DNA from: a virus
Taxonomy: Duplodnaviria > Heunggongvirae > Uroviricota > Caudoviricetes
Direction: 5' to 3' (one strand)
Length of the DNA stretch: 5,955 nt
Virus record (IMG/VR): IMGVR_UViG_2663763000_000004
Shown: positions 998 to 5,805 of the stretch, one piece after another
How the letters are laid out: each line of letters starts with the position of its first letter
How positions within the stretch are numbered: the stretch's first letter is position 1
Translations under genes and position numbers: made by a program
The notes under the pieces: model-generated
Told to the model about the DNA's origin: nothing
The model's input: only the letters and a program-made list of their open reading frames with translations
The model's database searches: none

Positions 998-1204
998 CTA
1001 TTCTGATGTAAAAACACCGTATTTACCGGGCATGTATAAATCGCCACAAGCCAGTACATCCACAAGGCAACGTCTGACTGAATGCCAGCCTGCTCCCGTC
1101 GCTCTCTCCAGTTGTGATATCGTCATGCGTTCATTTTTGCGTACCAGCCCGATAATTCGGGCCTTCAGTTCTTCACGCTGTTCGTGTGTAAAAGGTTTCG
1201 CCAT
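998..1204 (-). CDS. small helix-turn-helix (winged-helix-like) DNA-binding protein, about 68 aa
   Basis: ORF 998-1219, but position 1219 is a TTG; the in-frame ATG at 1202-1204 has GGAGG (reverse complement of 1210-1214) 5 nt upstream. The stretch MTISQLERATGAGWHSVRRCL looks like an HTH recognition region. Confidence 0.55.
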   Translation of the reverse strand: MAKPFTHEQREELKARIIGLVRKNERMTISQLERATGAGWHSVRRCLVDVLACGDLYMPGKYGVFTSE

Positions 1205-1219
1205 AAGCGCCTCCGGCAA

Positions 1220-2765: not shown

Positions 2766-3554
2766 TTACCCCCTGAAGCCTGGCGGGATCGCACTGTCCG
2801 GCAACGAGACAGTGTTAACCTGTCGGAGCAACGTCTCAGGCCGAACACCTTTCGGCGCGAACAGGCCCTGGTATTCATTGGCGATGCTGTGTCGAATCAC
2901 CTGCTCAGGTGTAAAACCCTGCTGACGGAATTTTTCCAGCTCCCGTATCGCCCCGTTAGCGCCCTGCTCCGTTCGAATCGGTTTTCGCAATGCCTGCCTG
3001 AACTTAACCCACTCATGCCAGAGTGTTTCCGGCAACCAGTCAGGCAGCTCGATAGCCTCCGGCTCGAATTTTTTAGACGCTCGTTTTTGGCGAGGGGGAT
3101 TTAGGGGGAGATCAGTATTTATATCTTCCTCTTCCTCTTCCTCTGGTAACGCTTTTTGATCCGTTTGTGTAACGCTGCCAGCGTTACCTTTTCGTTTCAG
3201 TTCGCGTATTTTTGTAACTCGCTCGTTTGTAACCGCCCGTTTTTTAGAGCTTTTTCCGTTATGACGTTCAAAGTTAGGTAGAGAAAGCCCACCGTCATTT
3301 TCGACCAGCCATCCAACCTGAATTAACGCATCAGCAAAACCAGCCATAAAAGTGATGCGGTCTATTGCACTTTTTGTAACGCCGCGAGCGTTACAATCTG
3401 CATTACCGTCTATCATTTGTTGATCCGCCCATGCCCAGAAGCGAATAACCTTCCCTAATGCGGCATCTGGATCAATATTCAGAATCTCAGCAAGCCTGAA
3501 TATTTCCGGCTTATCCGGCGTAATAACCTCGAGCTTTATCCAGTTTGAAGCCAT
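2766..3554 (-). CDS. phage replication initiator / replisome organiser (lambda O analogue, YdaU position)
   Basis: 262 aa; ATG at 3552-3554 with AAGGTG 7 nt upstream. Lies directly upstream of, and nearly abutting, the DnaC-like gene. The middle of the gene carries an iteron-like repeat cluster and an acidic EEEEEED linker, as lambda O carries ori. Family is assigned from position and architecture, not from recognised sequence identity. Confidence 0.7.
   Translation of the reverse strand: MASNWIKLEVITPDKPEIFRLAEILNIDPDAALGKVIRFWAWADQQMIDGNADCNARGVTKSAIDRITFMAGFADALIQVGWLVENDGGLSLPNFERHNGKSSKKRAVTNERVTKIRELKRKGNAGSVTQTDQKALPEEEEEEDINTDLPLNPPRQKRASKKFEPEAIELPDWLPETLWHEWVKFRQALRKPIRTEQGANGAIRELEKFRQQGFTPEQVIRHSIANEYQGLFAPKGVRPETLLRQVNTVSLPDSAIPPGFRG
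3145..3237. repeat. iteron-like repeat cluster inside the O-like gene (candidate replication origin)
   Basis: GTAACGC half-sites at 3146-3152 and 3169-3175, inverted GCGTTAC at 3181-3187, and variants GTAACtCGC (3214-3222) and GTAACcGCC (3229-3237); includes the 19-bp palindrome GTAACGCTG-c-CAGCGTTAC (3169-3187). Followed toward the gene 3' end by a pyrimidine-rich (CTTCCT)3 tract and an AT-rich patch (3110-3145). Confidence 0.5.
3374..3396. repeat. second copy of the GTAACGC-N5-GCGTTAC palindrome (TTGTAACGC-cgcga-GCGTTACAA)
   Basis: 9-bp perfect inverted arms inside the 5' part of the O-like gene; same core as 3169-3187 and 3566-3588. Confidence 0.5.
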
Positions 3555-3565
3555 TTGTTTTCACC

Positions 3566-3588
3566 TTGTAACGCTCGCAGCGTTACAT
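3566..3588. repeat. third copy of the GTAACGC-N5-GCGTTAC palindrome, just upstream of the O-like RBS
   Basis: TTGTAACGCt-cgc-aGCGTTACA in the 77-bp spacer between the YdaT-like stop and the O-like start, 14-30 nt upstream of the O-like ATG. No flanking T-run or A-run, so it is not a terminator. Confidence 0.5.
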
Positions 3589-3631: not shown

Positions 3632-4054
3632 TCAATGCACTACGACAGAATCGCCGGGCGACCCACCACCGCTGAAATGTGCTTTCCGGTAAACGGCCTG
3701 GACTGCATCATCATGCGCATCAATTGCCGTACTCAACGCTTCCTGCGCCGCCAGTAATGCACGGCGTTCCAGGGTATCGAAGATGCAGAGTCGGTGACGC
3801 AGCTCGCGCGGAAGAATTGCCAGAACCGCAGGGATCAGTTTCTGAATTTTTTCCCTTTGCGCTTTCGTTTCACCTTTCAACCAACGGTGATAGATATTCT
3901 GCTGATTGTTCCAGTCCTTGCCTGGTACAAGGGGCAATTCGCCGCCCCCCTGGCGCAGATATTCTTCAGTAATTGCGTTAGCGACCCACGCCTGCCCTTT
4001 TTCGGCTGCCAGGGCTAACAACACTGATTCGATGTGCTCATGCCTGATTTTCAT
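3632..4054 (-). CDS. ydaT: YdaT-family protein (CII-like regulator / putative toxin of the Rac ydaS-ydaT module)
   Basis: 140 aa; ATG at 4052-4054 overlaps the Cro-like stop as ATGA. The sequence MKIRHEHIESVLLALAAEKGQAWVANAITEEYLRQGGGELPL... matches my recollection of E. coli K-12 Rac YdaT (also 140 aa) very closely. It occupies the cII position between cro and the replication genes. Confidence 0.7.
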   Translation of the reverse strand: MKIRHEHIESVLLALAAEKGQAWVANAITEEYLRQGGGELPLVPGKDWNNQQNIYHRWLKGETKAQREKIQKLIPAVLAILPRELRHRLCIFDTLERRALLAAQEALSTAIDAHDDAVQAVYRKAHFSGGGSPGDSVVVH

Positions 4055-4293
4055 GAATCAACCGCTCCTATGCTGTTTTCGCTATGCTTACCGTCTGGGG
4101 GGAATACATCGTCAAGTCCACAATGAGCGCCAAGCCGATTAAGGGTAGAAACAATTTTTCTGCACTCCTCTAGTCCAGGGGTACGAAAATTTGCTTCGTA
4201 ATTTGCCAGTCGGCTTTGTATCCACCCTAACTGAACAGCAAGTTGTCTTTGAGACAGCCCAAGCTGTTTTCGATATGTTGAAATTTTGTTCAT
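4051..4293 (-). CDS. Cro-like HTH-XRE transcriptional regulator (80 aa)
   Basis: ATG at 4291-4293 with GGAGG (reverse complement of 4301-4305) 6 nt upstream. N-terminal HTH QLGLSQRQLAVQLGWIQSRLANYE of the Cro/C1 (XRE) type. First gene of the minus-strand operon, divergent from the repressor. Confidence 0.8.
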   Translation of the reverse strand: MNKISTYRKQLGLSQRQLAVQLGWIQSRLANYEANFRTPGLEECRKIVSTLNRLGAHCGLDDVFPPDGKHSENSIGAVDS

Positions 4294-4389
4294 TGAAAAC
4301 CTCCGATGACAATTTTAAACACACCTTGTGTTATATGGTCAATCTGTTTTGTGTTTTATGTAAATCACGATTCGTGATACAAGGATGCA
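4294..4389. promoter_or_regulatory. divergent immunity control region (PR-like / PRM-like promoters with operator candidates)
   Basis: 96-bp AT-rich spacer between the divergent HTH genes. Contains a 15-bp inverted repeat AACACAcctTGTGTT (4318-4332), a 15-bp perfect palindrome ATCACGAtTCGTGAT (4364-4378) just upstream of the repressor SD, and direct repeats TTGTGTTaTATG (4326-4337) and TTGTGTTtTATG (4349-4360). On the minus strand, a TTGACC, 17 nt, TTTAAA/TAAAAT arrangement could be the promoter for the Cro-like gene. Confidence 0.6.
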
Positions 4390-4809
4390 ATGGAAAAAGA
4401 AAACGAAAAAATTGCCGCTAGTAGGCTCAATGACAAAATTGCAATGCGTCTTAAAGAGCGCAGGCAGAAGCTTGGTTTATCTCAAGGAAAACTTGCTGAA
4501 ATCTGCGGATGGACGCAATCGCGTATAGGTAACTATGAGGCGGGCAGCAGAAATGTTGGAGTGCATGACGCTGTCGTATTGGGAAAGGCACTTGGCATAT
4601 CTCCTCCTGAGCTCCTATTTGGAGAACAGGAATCTTCTGAATTGTGGTTAAATGAATCCCAACGAAAACTTCTTGAGTTGTTTAACCAGCTACCTGGCTC
4701 AGAACAACAACGAATGATTGAGCTATTTGAAGTCCGGCTAAAAGAAATCGATGAGTATGTAGAAAAATATTTGAGAGGCAGGCTTAAAGATAATCCCCCA
4801 CCGGAGTAA
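4390..4809 (+). CDS. DicA-like prophage repressor (N-terminal HTH-XRE, C-terminal dimerisation region, no S24 peptidase domain)
   Basis: 139 aa; ATG at 4390 with AAGGA 4-5 nt upstream. HTH KLGLSQGKLAEICGWTQSRIGNYE; the C-terminal SQRKLLELFNQLPGSEQQRMIELFEVRLK resembles the DicA C-terminus (SPKELELLELFNALPESEQ...) as I recall it. Divergent from the Cro-like gene. Confidence 0.8.
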   Translation: MEKENEKIAASRLNDKIAMRLKERRQKLGLSQGKLAEICGWTQSRIGNYEAGSRNVGVHDAVVLGKALGISPPELLFGEQESSELWLNESQRKLLELFNQLPGSEQQRMIELFEVRLKEIDEYVEKYLRGRLKDNPPPE

Positions 4810-4838: not shown

Positions 4839-4864
4839 CAGCCCGCTATCAGCGGGCTTTTTTG
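4839..4864 (+). terminator. rho-independent terminator downstream of the repressor gene
   Basis: Perfect 8-bp GC-rich stem AGCCCGCT (4840-4847) / AGCGGGCT (4851-4858) with a 3-nt loop ATC, followed by a T-run (4858-4863), 30 nt after the repressor stop. Confidence 0.8.
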
Positions 4865-4892
4865 TACCATCATCATATGACACCCACCACAA

Positions 4893-4935
4893 AACACATT
4901 TCGTGTTGACATAAGAAAACGCATTGTGTTTAATA
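4893..4935 (+). promoter_or_regulatory. PL/OL-like promoter with overlapping operator-like palindromes, driving the downstream accessory gene
   Basis: -35 TTGACA (4906-4911), 17-bp spacer, -10 TTTAAT (4929-4934) with TG at 4927-4928. The inverted repeat AACACatttcGTGTT (4893-4907) overlaps the -35, and an imperfect repeat AAACGCattGTGTTT (4917-4931) overlaps the spacer and -10. The motif AACAC-N5-GTGTT is the same as at 4318-4332. Confidence 0.55.
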
Positions 4936-5103: not shown

Positions 5104-5805
5104 ATGAGGTCAACANNNNNNNNNNNNNNNNNNNNNNNNNNNNNNNNNNNNNNNNNNNNNNNNNNNNNNNNNNNNNNNNNNNNNNNNNNNNNNNNCCAGG
5201 AGATTGCAGCACACACACTTCGTCATCGTCTGAACGAACTTGAATTGGAATCGGTAACGAAAAAAGACACTGATAATATGGCTCGTAATGTGCGCGATGC
5301 GTTTACCGGATTGTATTTCTGTGCGTCTATAAATAAACACGACTCAGAGAGTGTGGCAAATAAAATTGCAGAAACGACAGCGCAAAACATCAATACGAAA
5401 CCAACGGAAGAAGAAATTGATCAGTTTGCTCATGATGCTGGTTTAAAAAACAAGAAAGAAAAATCGCCATATGCGGGGAACATGTTTGTTTATGACAATC
5501 TCATCAGAATTCGTGGCGAAATTCCGGCGGAATACCTGGCAAGAGTCCATCAGGCATTGCTTAAAAATTTGGAAACAGAATTATTTGATGGCAACACTAA
5601 CGGTTTCTTCATGGTATCAGGCCTTGAGAAAGACTGGGATGCAGAAAAACGCTGGAATGTTGCTACATGGTTATTCAGTAACAGAGCCGCTGCACTGGAA
5701 GCTTCGGCATGTATTTGCGGCCTGTTCTTAACAGACCACAAATATAATCTGGATGTGTACAGTTATATTTACGCTGAACACGGTCCACTCTGGATTGACT
5801 GGTAA
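5104..5805 (+). CDS. hypothetical protein of unknown function; lower-GC accessory gene in the cI-proximal position, interrupted by an assembly gap
   Basis: ATG at 5104 with strong SD AAGGGG (5095-5100); 80 N at 5116-5195; then a continuous open frame 5196-5805 ending in TAA (5803-5805). Hand-counted GC in three 60-nt blocks (5281-5460) is roughly 35-43 percent, against roughly 50 percent in a replication-gene block (2401-2460). The gap length, and so the frame link between 5104 and 5196, cannot be trusted; an in-frame ATG at 5278 has no SD. No motif I recognise. Confidence 0.5.
   Translation: MRSTXXXXXXXXXXXXXXXXXXXXXXXXXXXQEIAAHTLRHRLNELELESVTKKDTDNMARNVRDAFTGLYFCASINKHDSESVANKIAETTAQNINTKPTEEEIDQFAHDAGLKNKKEKSPYAGNMFVYDNLIRIRGEIPAEYLARVHQALLKNLETELFDGNTNGFFMVSGLEKDWDAEKRWNVATWLFSNRAAALEASACICGLFLTDHKYNLDVYSYIYAEHGPLWIDW
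5116..5195. other. assembly gap (80 N)
   Basis: Run of exactly 80 ambiguous bases, a conventional scaffold-gap placeholder. Confidence 0.99.

Follow-up and report, generated by a model that had tools for sequence, protein, structure and literature searches.

How does a prophage escape from a repressor that is not built to cut itself? The question is raised by a repressor gene in the window, the 5,955-nucleotide stretch of viral DNA analyzed here (IMG/VR record IMGVR_UViG_2663763000_000004). The gene (4390-4809, + strand) starts with ATG and encodes 139 amino acids. An initial annotation, made from the letters of the DNA, had proposed that its product lacks the S24 autopeptidase domain, that a palindrome immediately upstream serves its autoregulation, and that derepression needs an antirepressor or some other signal in place of RecA-mediated self-cleavage. 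The answer developed below, to which we would assign a probability of about 0.7, is that this protein is a lysogeny repressor of the GfoR/GfhR/DicA class, a CI analogue that acts at AACAC-N5-GTGTT operators and is released from them by an antirepressor of the GfoA family.

The prophage and its immunity region

The window corresponds to the part of a Rac-like lambdoid E. coli prophage that governs immunity and replication. Leftward from the repressor gene lie genes for a Cro-like protein (4051-4293, - strand; 80 aa, with an HTH_3 domain in Pfam), a CII-like YdaT (3632-4054, - strand; 95% identical to YdaT of the K-12 Rac prophage), an O-like initiator, a DnaC-like loader, and DUF1627, DUF977 and DUF551 proteins. 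Rightward lie a terminator, a promoter and the early-left genes, which in relatives continue through kil, recE, recT, xis and int to ttcA or yebY/copD; the ORF that is located 3' of the repressor gene encodes a phrog_2151 protein. Likeness to Rac extends to the backbone, to the ttcA integration site in some relatives, and to YdaT, the DnaC-like protein, recET and intR, and RacR is also a short, non-SOS repressor. Nevertheless, the repressor and cro genes make up an immunity module distinct from that of Rac: the repressor has no detectable similarity to RacR or YdaS despite the Rac-like backbone, and its identification as RacR is rejected.

The window is a mosaic, and no complete E. coli genome covers all of it (best coverage, 86%). 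Of 5426 complete E. coli genomes, 153 (~3%) contain the repressor locus, each in a single copy; O157:H7, O145, O111, O55:H7 and avian (pathogenic) strains are represented. Neighboring modules such as ydaT occur in about 1500 E. coli genomes. The same immunity region is also carried by a deposited phage genome. The repressor of related prophages listed in RefSeq as WP_000410105.1 is identical to that of the window. A literature search with this accession, and with that of the linked protein WP_001356604.1 that is discussed below, gave no match, and no paper was found for phage vB_Apl-pPE4.

A repressor without a peptidase

Searching the protein for domains, as the initial annotation had advised, yields HTH families only: in Pfam, HTH_3 covers residues 21-75 (E 4.7e-13), relaxing the threshold to E<=10 brings up no Peptidase_S24 match, and the C-terminal 56 aa are without a Pfam assignment. 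The homologues (at least 120 listed, 91-202 aa in length) likewise contain HTH families only. The AlphaFold2 model, built on an alignment of 28 homologues (pLDDT 86.9), is all-helical: a five-helix HTH domain extends to approximately residue 77 and is followed by a short linker and by helices 89-99 and 103-133, which form a hairpin. When this model is compared with the PDB by Foldseek, the top matches are the HTH domains of C.AhdI, P22 C2 and 434; the C-terminal hairpin finds no solved relative, the HTH domain alone being matched, and a match to SinR/SinI is weak (rmsd 8.8).

Could an autopeptidase nevertheless be hidden in such a protein, allowing it to be inactivated through RecA like λ CI? 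The S24 peptidase fold is beta-rich and requires ~90-100 residues. What follows the HTH domain here is a segment of ~55 residues, modeled as two helices; the all-helical model and the beta-rich S24 fold are incompatible, which excludes a cryptic autopeptidase. The individual attributes of the LexA/λ CI (Peptidase S24) family are missing as well: there is no S24 beta-domain and no Ser/Lys dyad, no Ser is invariant in the C-terminal half across the 28 homologues, and the Ala-Gly pair, at residues 51-52, lies inside the HTH domain instead of in a linker. Relatives of this repressor, to be introduced in the next section, have been shown experimentally to escape cleavage. Cryptic self-cleavage is accordingly an explanation to which we give next to no credence. 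The initial description of a 139-aa protein with an N-terminal HTH and no Ser/Lys peptidase module is thus borne out by the ORF, by Pfam and by the AlphaFold2 model, and the S24-like dyad that was to have told against it did not turn up. Sequence and model together support a repressor that should be incapable of RecA-stimulated self-cleavage.

A class of non-cleavable repressors

Non-cleaved repressors that are inactivated by small antirepressors constitute a class that was already described in 2011, so that the initial inference is right but established. The repressors GfoR, GfhR and GtgR were found experimentally not to be cleaved on induction; the Gifsy repressors are instead bound by small LexA-controlled antirepressors and then released from DNA, as when GfoA inactivates GfoR and frees the DNA (PMC3121763). 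DicA and RacR were named as members of the group, homologues of which exist in most E. coli genomes (PMC3121763). DicA, for its part, is derepressed by Rem (bioRxiv 10.1101/2023.04.14.536235). PaaR2 of prophage CP-933P has no peptidase motif, does not respond to mitomycin C and is made from a leaderless mRNA (PMC8630535).

Does the repressor of the window belong in this company? GfoA and GfoR of Salmonella Gifsy-1 were recovered for comparison from viral contigs with the help of the primers that Lemire et al. 2011 give for their cloning. The repressor is 32% identical to GfoR (131 aa) over 125 aa (E 7e-19) and, by BLASTP, 28.7% identical to K-12 DicA over 129 aa (E 2e-14); its C-terminus is 45.7% identical to that of GtgR over 35 aa. 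The NCBIfam profile for DicA, NF007257, is matched nearly from end to end (residues 15-133 align with positions 4-131 of the 135 in the profile) at 57.2 bits, which is below the cut-off of 101 and makes the repressor a relative of DicA, neither a member of that subfamily nor a DicA orthologue. A C-terminal motif, LLxLFxQLPxxEQ...RLKE(I/L)D...Y, is common to the repressor, GfoR, GtgR and DicA, and the C-terminal domain is where conservation across the repressor family is highest. The DicA-like C-terminus that the initial annotation had discerned is therefore genuine.

The features of sequence and gene order that distinguish the class are in evidence: a small protein (the class spans about 125-165 aa) with an N-terminal HTH of the Cro/C1 type; no S24 domain, cleavage site or Ser/Lys dyad; homology over the full length, including the C-terminal LFxQLP...RLKExD domain; and the position of cI, with a divergent cro-like gene ahead of a CII analogue and replication genes, and with operators at both early promoters. 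The evidence from sequence supports placing the protein in that short, non-cleavable class as a previously uncharacterized lysogeny repressor, a full-length homologue of GfoR and DicA. This homology, with the precedents of GfoR (PMC3121763) and of Rem and DicA (bioRxiv 10.1101/2023.04.14.536235), also speaks for derepression by way of an antirepressor or another signal, as initially proposed, rather than by RecA-mediated self-cleavage.

The resemblances to individual members of the class are instructive. Gifsy-1 GfoR shares with the window repressor its size, the combination of HTH and C-terminal LFxQLP...RLKE(I/L)D motif, and divergence from cro in a lambdoid immunity region, but the operator specificity of the window repressor differs. 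DicA, in the Qin prophage of K-12, is likewise short, non-cleavable and divergent from its Cro analogue (DicC), and has the same C-terminal motif; as in Qin, DUF1391 and kil/dicB-type genes are located downstream of the repressor. In contrast to Qin, this prophage keeps its replication and recombination genes and, in relatives, structural genes. PaaR2 of CP-933P (O157:H7) is similar in being a CI analogue without a peptidase motif and, as already mentioned, unresponsive to mitomycin C. The immunity regions are also alike: an intergenic region of ~97 bp with several equally spaced operators for the repressor and the Cro-like protein, a repressor mRNA that is leaderless (probably so in the window; see below), a YdaT-type CII analogue after cro, and a PL-type promoter 3' of the repressor gene. 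There the likeness ends: the PaaR2-PaaA2-ParE2 arrangement places a toxin-antitoxin pair behind the repressor gene, whereas in the window an intrinsic terminator (4840-4866, + strand; an 8-bp G+C-rich stem followed by a run of T) and PL come directly after it, and YdaT is of the Rac type, unlike that of CP-933P. Equating the repressor with PaaR2 is consequently unsupported: no locus or homologue contains an ORF that begins with MQKKE, the N-terminus of PaaR2, there are no toxin-antitoxin genes, and the YdaT type is another one.

Operators and promoters

The palindrome to which attention had been drawn, ATCACGATTCGTGAT, is exactly where it was said to be (4364-4378). It has 7-bp arms about a central T, and its center lies 19 bp 5' of the repressor ATG. 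Of palindromes with arms of 7 bp or more and a spacer no longer than 4, one would expect ~1.7 in the whole window and ~0.03 in the 96-bp intergenic region. The palindrome, designated OR3, is one of a set of five AACAC-N5-GTGTT sites, three in the gap that separates the repressor gene from the cro-like gene and two at the leftward promoter, with a center-to-center spacing of 23 bp throughout the window. OR1, AACACACCTTGTGTT, is at 4318-4332. The presumed OR2, AATCTGTTTTGTGTT at 4341-4355, is read from the sequence: only its right half-site is conserved, but its center is 23 bp from those of both OR1 and OR3, and full-site equivalents exist in the homologous loci L007, L010 and L011. At the other end of the repressor gene, OL2, AACACATTTCGTGTT, and OL1, AAAACGCATTGTGTT, occupy 4893-4907 and 4916-4930, respectively. 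(All five sites are strandless.)

How secure is this assignment? With one mismatch or none allowed, AWCAC-N5-GTGWT is found four times in the window, always in the two regulatory gaps; 0.65 occurrences are expected, and none of 200 shuffles reaches four. The pattern was derived from the window's own sites, however, so that comparison across loci provides the only independent check. Among 21 homologous loci of other genera, six encode a repressor with the recognition helix GWxQSRIGNYE. Upstream of the repressor gene, five of these six have three sites (L005, L006, L007, L010, L011) and one has a single site (L012); the spacing is 23-24 bp in L007, L010 and L011, and 26 and 47 bp in L005 and L006. 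On the 3' side of the gene, L005, L006 and L011 have two sites 23 bp apart, and L007 has one. The loci of this set with other recognition helices lack the sites. The motif thus co-varies with the recognition helix, which supports its assignment as the operator. It differs from the half-site GTTTAGTAA that is reported for the 18-bp palindromes of CP-933P by its authors. (The paper on Rac YdaT offers no motif that accounts for TGTAACGC palindromes.)

The promoters among which these sites are placed were read from sequence and conservation; they had been missed by a promoter scan because their -10 hexamers violate its requirement for A as the second base and/or T as the sixth. The presumed PR, for the cro-like/ydaT/replication operon (4314-4342, - strand), has its -35 element TTGACC at 4342-4337 and its -10 element TTTAAA at 4319-4314, separated by a 17-bp spacer; GTCAA is kept at this position in relatives. 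The presumed PL (4906-4934, + strand; TTGACA, 17 bp, TTTAAT) would serve a DUF1391/kil/recET/xis/int operon, the gene order being taken from relatives. Operators and promoters share one geometry: OR1 is inside the PR spacer and overlaps the -10 element by 2 bp, OR2 overlaps the -35 element by 2 bp, and OL1 and OL2 are disposed in precisely the same way with respect to PL. The presumed PRM (4355-4383, + strand) combines a weak -35 element (TTTATG, 4355-4360) with an extended -10 element (TG-A-TACAAG, 4375-4383), and OR3 overlaps both its spacer and the extended -10 element.

The distance between the PRM -10 element and the repressor ATG is exactly 6 nt. This configuration, TG-n-TA(A/C)AA(A/G), six variable nucleotides, ATG, is kept in the window and in L005, L006, L007, L010 and L011; in all six, the right half-site of OR3 continues into the TG-n-TA(A/C)AA(A/G) element, and in several of the relatives the six bases before the ATG contain no Shine-Dalgarno sequence. 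The repressor mRNA is therefore probably leaderless, with its 5' end at 4390, as judged from this arrangement. Leaderless repressor mRNAs have precedents in λ cI and in PaaR2 of CP-933P, the latter established by 5' RACE and N-terminal sequencing (PMC8630535). The sequence AAGGA (4381-4385) has the look of a ribosome-binding site, but the conserved geometry of -10 element and ATG in relatives implies that it is probably not transcribed; it could be a real ribosome-binding site, 5 nt before the ATG, if transcription begins further upstream. Thus, what the initial annotation had described as a palindrome immediately upstream of the ribosome-binding site is correctly located, but the site is likelier to lie in the PRM spacer and extended -10 element, ahead of a message that dispenses with a leader.

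In the layout of λ PRM, operator centers are found at -19, -42 and -65. The window presents the same values, counted from the start of the repressor gene, along with a tripartite OR at 23-bp spacing, an OL and a Cro/C1-type HTH; where it departs from λ CI, P22 C2 and LexA is in a protein with no S24 domain, cleavage site or Ser/Lys dyad, whose putative oligomerization domain is a short helical hairpin. The flagged palindrome is most likely OR3, exerting negative autoregulation from inside PRM: the autoregulation that it had suggested is supported, and the palindrome turns out to be one of a λ-like operator set.

These elements suggest the following scheme. A repressor dimer, presumably held together by its C-terminal helical hairpin, would bind to the 15-bp AACAC-N5-GTGTT operators. 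Occupancy of OR1 and OR2, and of OL1 and OL2, would shut off PR and PL, while binding to OR3, in the core of PRM, would limit synthesis of the repressor itself. The HTH of the Cro-like protein is 45% identical to that of the repressor, and its recognition helix is nearly identical (QSRLANYE, compared with QSRIGNYE in the repressor), so that it should compete for the same operators; competition at shared sites would create a bistable switch. Induction would ensue when a small antirepressor of the GfoA family binds to the repressor and causes it to leave DNA. Where might that antirepressor be encoded?

A linked gene of the GfoA family

A candidate is found outside the window, in related E. coli prophages: a gene in the nin region, on the cro strand and 5.8-7.8 kb from the repressor gene, which lies between hok and a DUF1367 gene and encodes the 70-aa protein WP_001356604.1. 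Its placement recalls both Gifsy, whose nin region likewise houses a small gene of the GfoA family, and Qin, in which the antirepressor gene rem is situated just 3' of hokD with no known SOS signal. It differs from Qin in type: the E. coli linked gene belongs to phrog_1813 (GfoA-type), and Rem-type antirepressors to phrog_340.

The relationship to GfoA emerges at the level of the family. The 70-aa family profile matches GfoA with 42.9 bits (E 1.8e-15), and a leave-one-out profile of 72 members, GfoA included and the E. coli type omitted, detects the E. coli ORF among 4823 ORFs searched (E 4.7e-14). Pairwise, the E. coli protein is only weakly similar to GfoA (E 3e-4) and is 27-33% identical to the LexA-linked members of the family; similarity of the family to GftA of Gifsy-2 or to Rem is not significant.

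Gene and repressor travel together. The 70-aa gene is called in 9 of 10 contexts of the exact repressor protein, and homologues are found in 14 of the 21 homologous loci of other genera. Among 80 viral contigs, 57 of 61 family genes are preceded, at a distance of 4.2-9.4 kb, by a gene for a short repressor of this family that lies on the opposite strand; the four exceptions are cases in which insertions of genes have pushed the immunity region past the fetched flank. The 70-aa gene is present in 173 of the 5426 E. coli genomes. Sampled rows provided an estimate of its overlap with the repressor: 10 genomes are common to the two samples, and in each of them a distance of 5.8-7.8 kb separates the genes. 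Near-complete linkage predicts this number of shared genomes, whereas independence would yield ~5 in the entire collection. The abundance of ydaT (about 1500 genomes, against 153 for the repressor) makes this linkage specific to the repressor allele. Clonal descent of a single prophage lineage could account for part of it.

The SOS connection and its probable loss

In other genera the gene is wired to the SOS response. At 71 of 71 viral loci (on 80 contigs), the 70-aa-family gene has a LexA box in the 700 nt that precede it; such a box is also found at 14 of 14 genome loci, and at 69 of 94 loci a dinI-like ORF is interposed between box and gene, which is the Gifsy arrangement. By the weight matrix built from 57 of these boxes, true boxes of the family score at least 19.2 bits. 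No LexA box is found in the window, nor in the 13 E. coli-type contexts (L001, L002, L027-L036 and the phage record L175), in which the best score is 14.9 bits; dinI is also missing from the E. coli contexts. The LexA box-dinI-antirepressor module of the Gifsy type is thus a property of the other genera: the E. coli gene is divergent in sequence and comes instead after the terminator of a hok module, just as rem comes after hokD in Qin. An antirepressor gene with a LexA box had been predicted to reside elsewhere in the prophage; E. coli prophages with this repressor do have a gene, a linked member of the GfoA family, but in the 13 contexts no box was found.

A sequence in E. coli, TTGTACCTGCACAT, aligns with the LexA boxes of the other genera; on the slender ground of that alignment, it may be a decayed LexA box.

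Direct SOS coupling of the E. coli antirepressor has probably been lost, or is supplied in trans. The trigger in E. coli could be a non-SOS signal or one that another prophage supplies in trans, or there could be none. One can think of the hok/sok module as having replaced the LexA box and dinI, uncoupling the GfoA-type antirepressor from LexA and placing it under the control of a signal other than DNA damage, or of read-through from hok or the early-right transcript. We hold this version of events tentatively, as possible but on balance doubtful.

Is there an inducer at all? The repressor might be of the same class and have none of its own, prophage release being left to stochastic switching by way of the Cro-like protein or to destabilization of the repressor by heat, urea or host proteases, with the 70-aa gene a relic or serving another purpose. 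Much is compatible with this idea, beginning with the missing LexA box and dinI. Temperatures of 39-42 °C, and likewise urea, lift repression by DicA with no need for Rem or RecA, and spontaneous switching is seen in ~1% of cells (bioRxiv 10.1101/2023.04.14.536235); CP-933P exhibits heritable bistability without SOS involvement (PMC8630535). Signs of decay can also be cited: the DUF977 gene of the window is truncated, and relatives contain IS elements and pseudogenes. Yet the 70-aa gene is intact and tightly linked to the repressor allele over two integration sites and many serotypes, which argues for selection on a functional pair, and the occurrence of the same immunity region in a deposited phage genome also tells against the idea. 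An inducer-free prophage strikes us as unlikely.

SOS-dependent induction might, alternatively, be imposed in trans, either by LexA-controlled antirepressors of co-resident prophages or by an ORF6N/Rem-like protein, through the conserved C-terminal domain of the repressor. Salmonella provides the precedent: either antirepressor, GfoA or GfhA, inactivates the two heteroimmune repressors alike, and GtgR is inactivated by FsoA of Fels-1 (PMC3121763). The strong conservation of the C-terminal domain, greater than that of any other part of the repressor family, fits such promiscuity. The ORF6N protein of some relatives, WP_000211416.1, matches PHROG antirepressor families, and its last 50 aa give matches to the Rem family (E 9e-5) and to the GfoA profile (E 0.008), but these are weak and near noise level. 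Moreover, the ORF6N gene is present in just 6 of 10 contexts, and no LexA box was found near it in the relatives. Trans-acting induction of this kind is very unlikely to be the principal route, and release by the linked GfoA-family antirepressor continues to be the reading that we prefer.

Implications

Assigning this repressor to the antirepressor-controlled Gifsy/DicA type leaves the picture of how such repressors work unchanged. What it provides is concreteness: an operator map and a candidate repressor/antirepressor pair are now at hand. The assignment also bears on possible ways of inducing prophages of this kind and on whether they could be cross-induced by co-resident ones, and the lack of a LexA box at the linked antirepressor gene adds to its interest. 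The question of principal value concerns the control of the hok-adjacent antirepressor gene in E. coli. If that gene is indeed uncoupled from LexA, it would represent a widespread non-SOS route by which lambdoid prophages could be induced in pathogenic E. coli (O157, O145, O111, O55, APEC).

An exchanged immunity cassette and its neighborhood

A mosaic joint lies between cro and ydaT (3632-4293 of the window): the YdaT protein is 95% identical to that of the K-12 Rac prophage, while the Cro-like protein and the repressor show no similarity to YdaS or RacR. The prophage has a Rac backbone with an exchanged immunity cassette.

The O-like replication gene (2766-3554, minus strand) is accompanied by three 21-bp palindromes, TGTAACGC-N5-GCGTTAC(A/C), at 3168-3188, 3375-3395 and 3567-3587, that is, at a spacing of approximately 200 bp. 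Two of the three lie within the 5' half of the gene and the third adjoins its Shine-Dalgarno sequence; exact matches to the core, AACGC-N5-GCGTT, number 3, against 0.01 expected. Their half-sites are one base removed from those of the repressor operator (AACGC rather than AACAC). The palindromes may serve the replication origin or its initiator, or else be targets of another regulator.

Downstream of the repressor, 80 N occupy positions 5117-5196 of the window. In its relatives, a DUF1391 (ydfA/ydaF-like) gene is found at this place; the masking also takes in the start of the phrog_2151 gene, leaving 5197-5805 as its readable part. In the window, the repressor stop codon and the phrog_2151 gene are approximately 110 bp closer together than in E. 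coli strain ML35, which carries a related prophage. Many of the homologous loci share a conserved sequence, AACACCGGATGAGAT, approximately 540-600 bp past the start of the repressor gene (at about 10536-10598 in L005, L006, L009, L011, L013, L014, L015, L017 and L020; the variants are ATCACCGGATGAGAT in L005 and L006, and AACACCGGGTGAGAT in L015), and it is present irrespective of the recognition helix of the repressor. The sequence is absent from what can be read of the window, and may lie inside the masked stretch.

Antirepressor-type genes of the related prophages

In related E. coli prophages, hok lies directly 5' of the 70-aa GfoA-family candidate antirepressor gene (the pair at 19059-19702 of L002, minus strand); the counterpart in Qin is hokD followed by rem (13652-14275 of L003). 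In other genera, the position held by hok in these prophages is instead occupied by a LexA box and dinI. The sequence TTGTACCTGCACAT, 5' of the E. coli 70-aa gene, can be aligned with the LexA boxes of those genera and is perhaps the remnant of one.

Some of the related prophages also encode an ORF6N-domain protein, WP_000211416.1 (L002, 16692-17273, minus strand; L001, 11051-11632). Its N-terminal part matches PHROG antirepressor families; for the C-terminal 50 aa there are weak matches to the Rem family (phrog_340, E 9e-5) and to the GfoA profile (E 0.008). The protein may be a KilA-N-like domain fused to a small antirepressor module.

A deposited phage, and a possible sign of decay

A genome deposited as "Actinobacillus phage vB_Apl-pPE4" (GenBank PP818812.1; regions 6590-7738 and 13832-14044) has an E. 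coli immunity region of the window type (96% identity), together with hok and the 70-aa gene, joined to different structural genes. A literature search found no publication on this phage. Either prophages of this immunity type produce virions, or the stated host is open to doubt.

The DUF977 (Ren-like) gene of the window (998-1219, followed by a 62-aa ORF at 809-997) specifies only 73 aa, compared with 131-153 aa in relatives, and the Pfam model is matched over its first half only. The gene looks truncated or frameshifted, which points to decay or to a mosaic joint.
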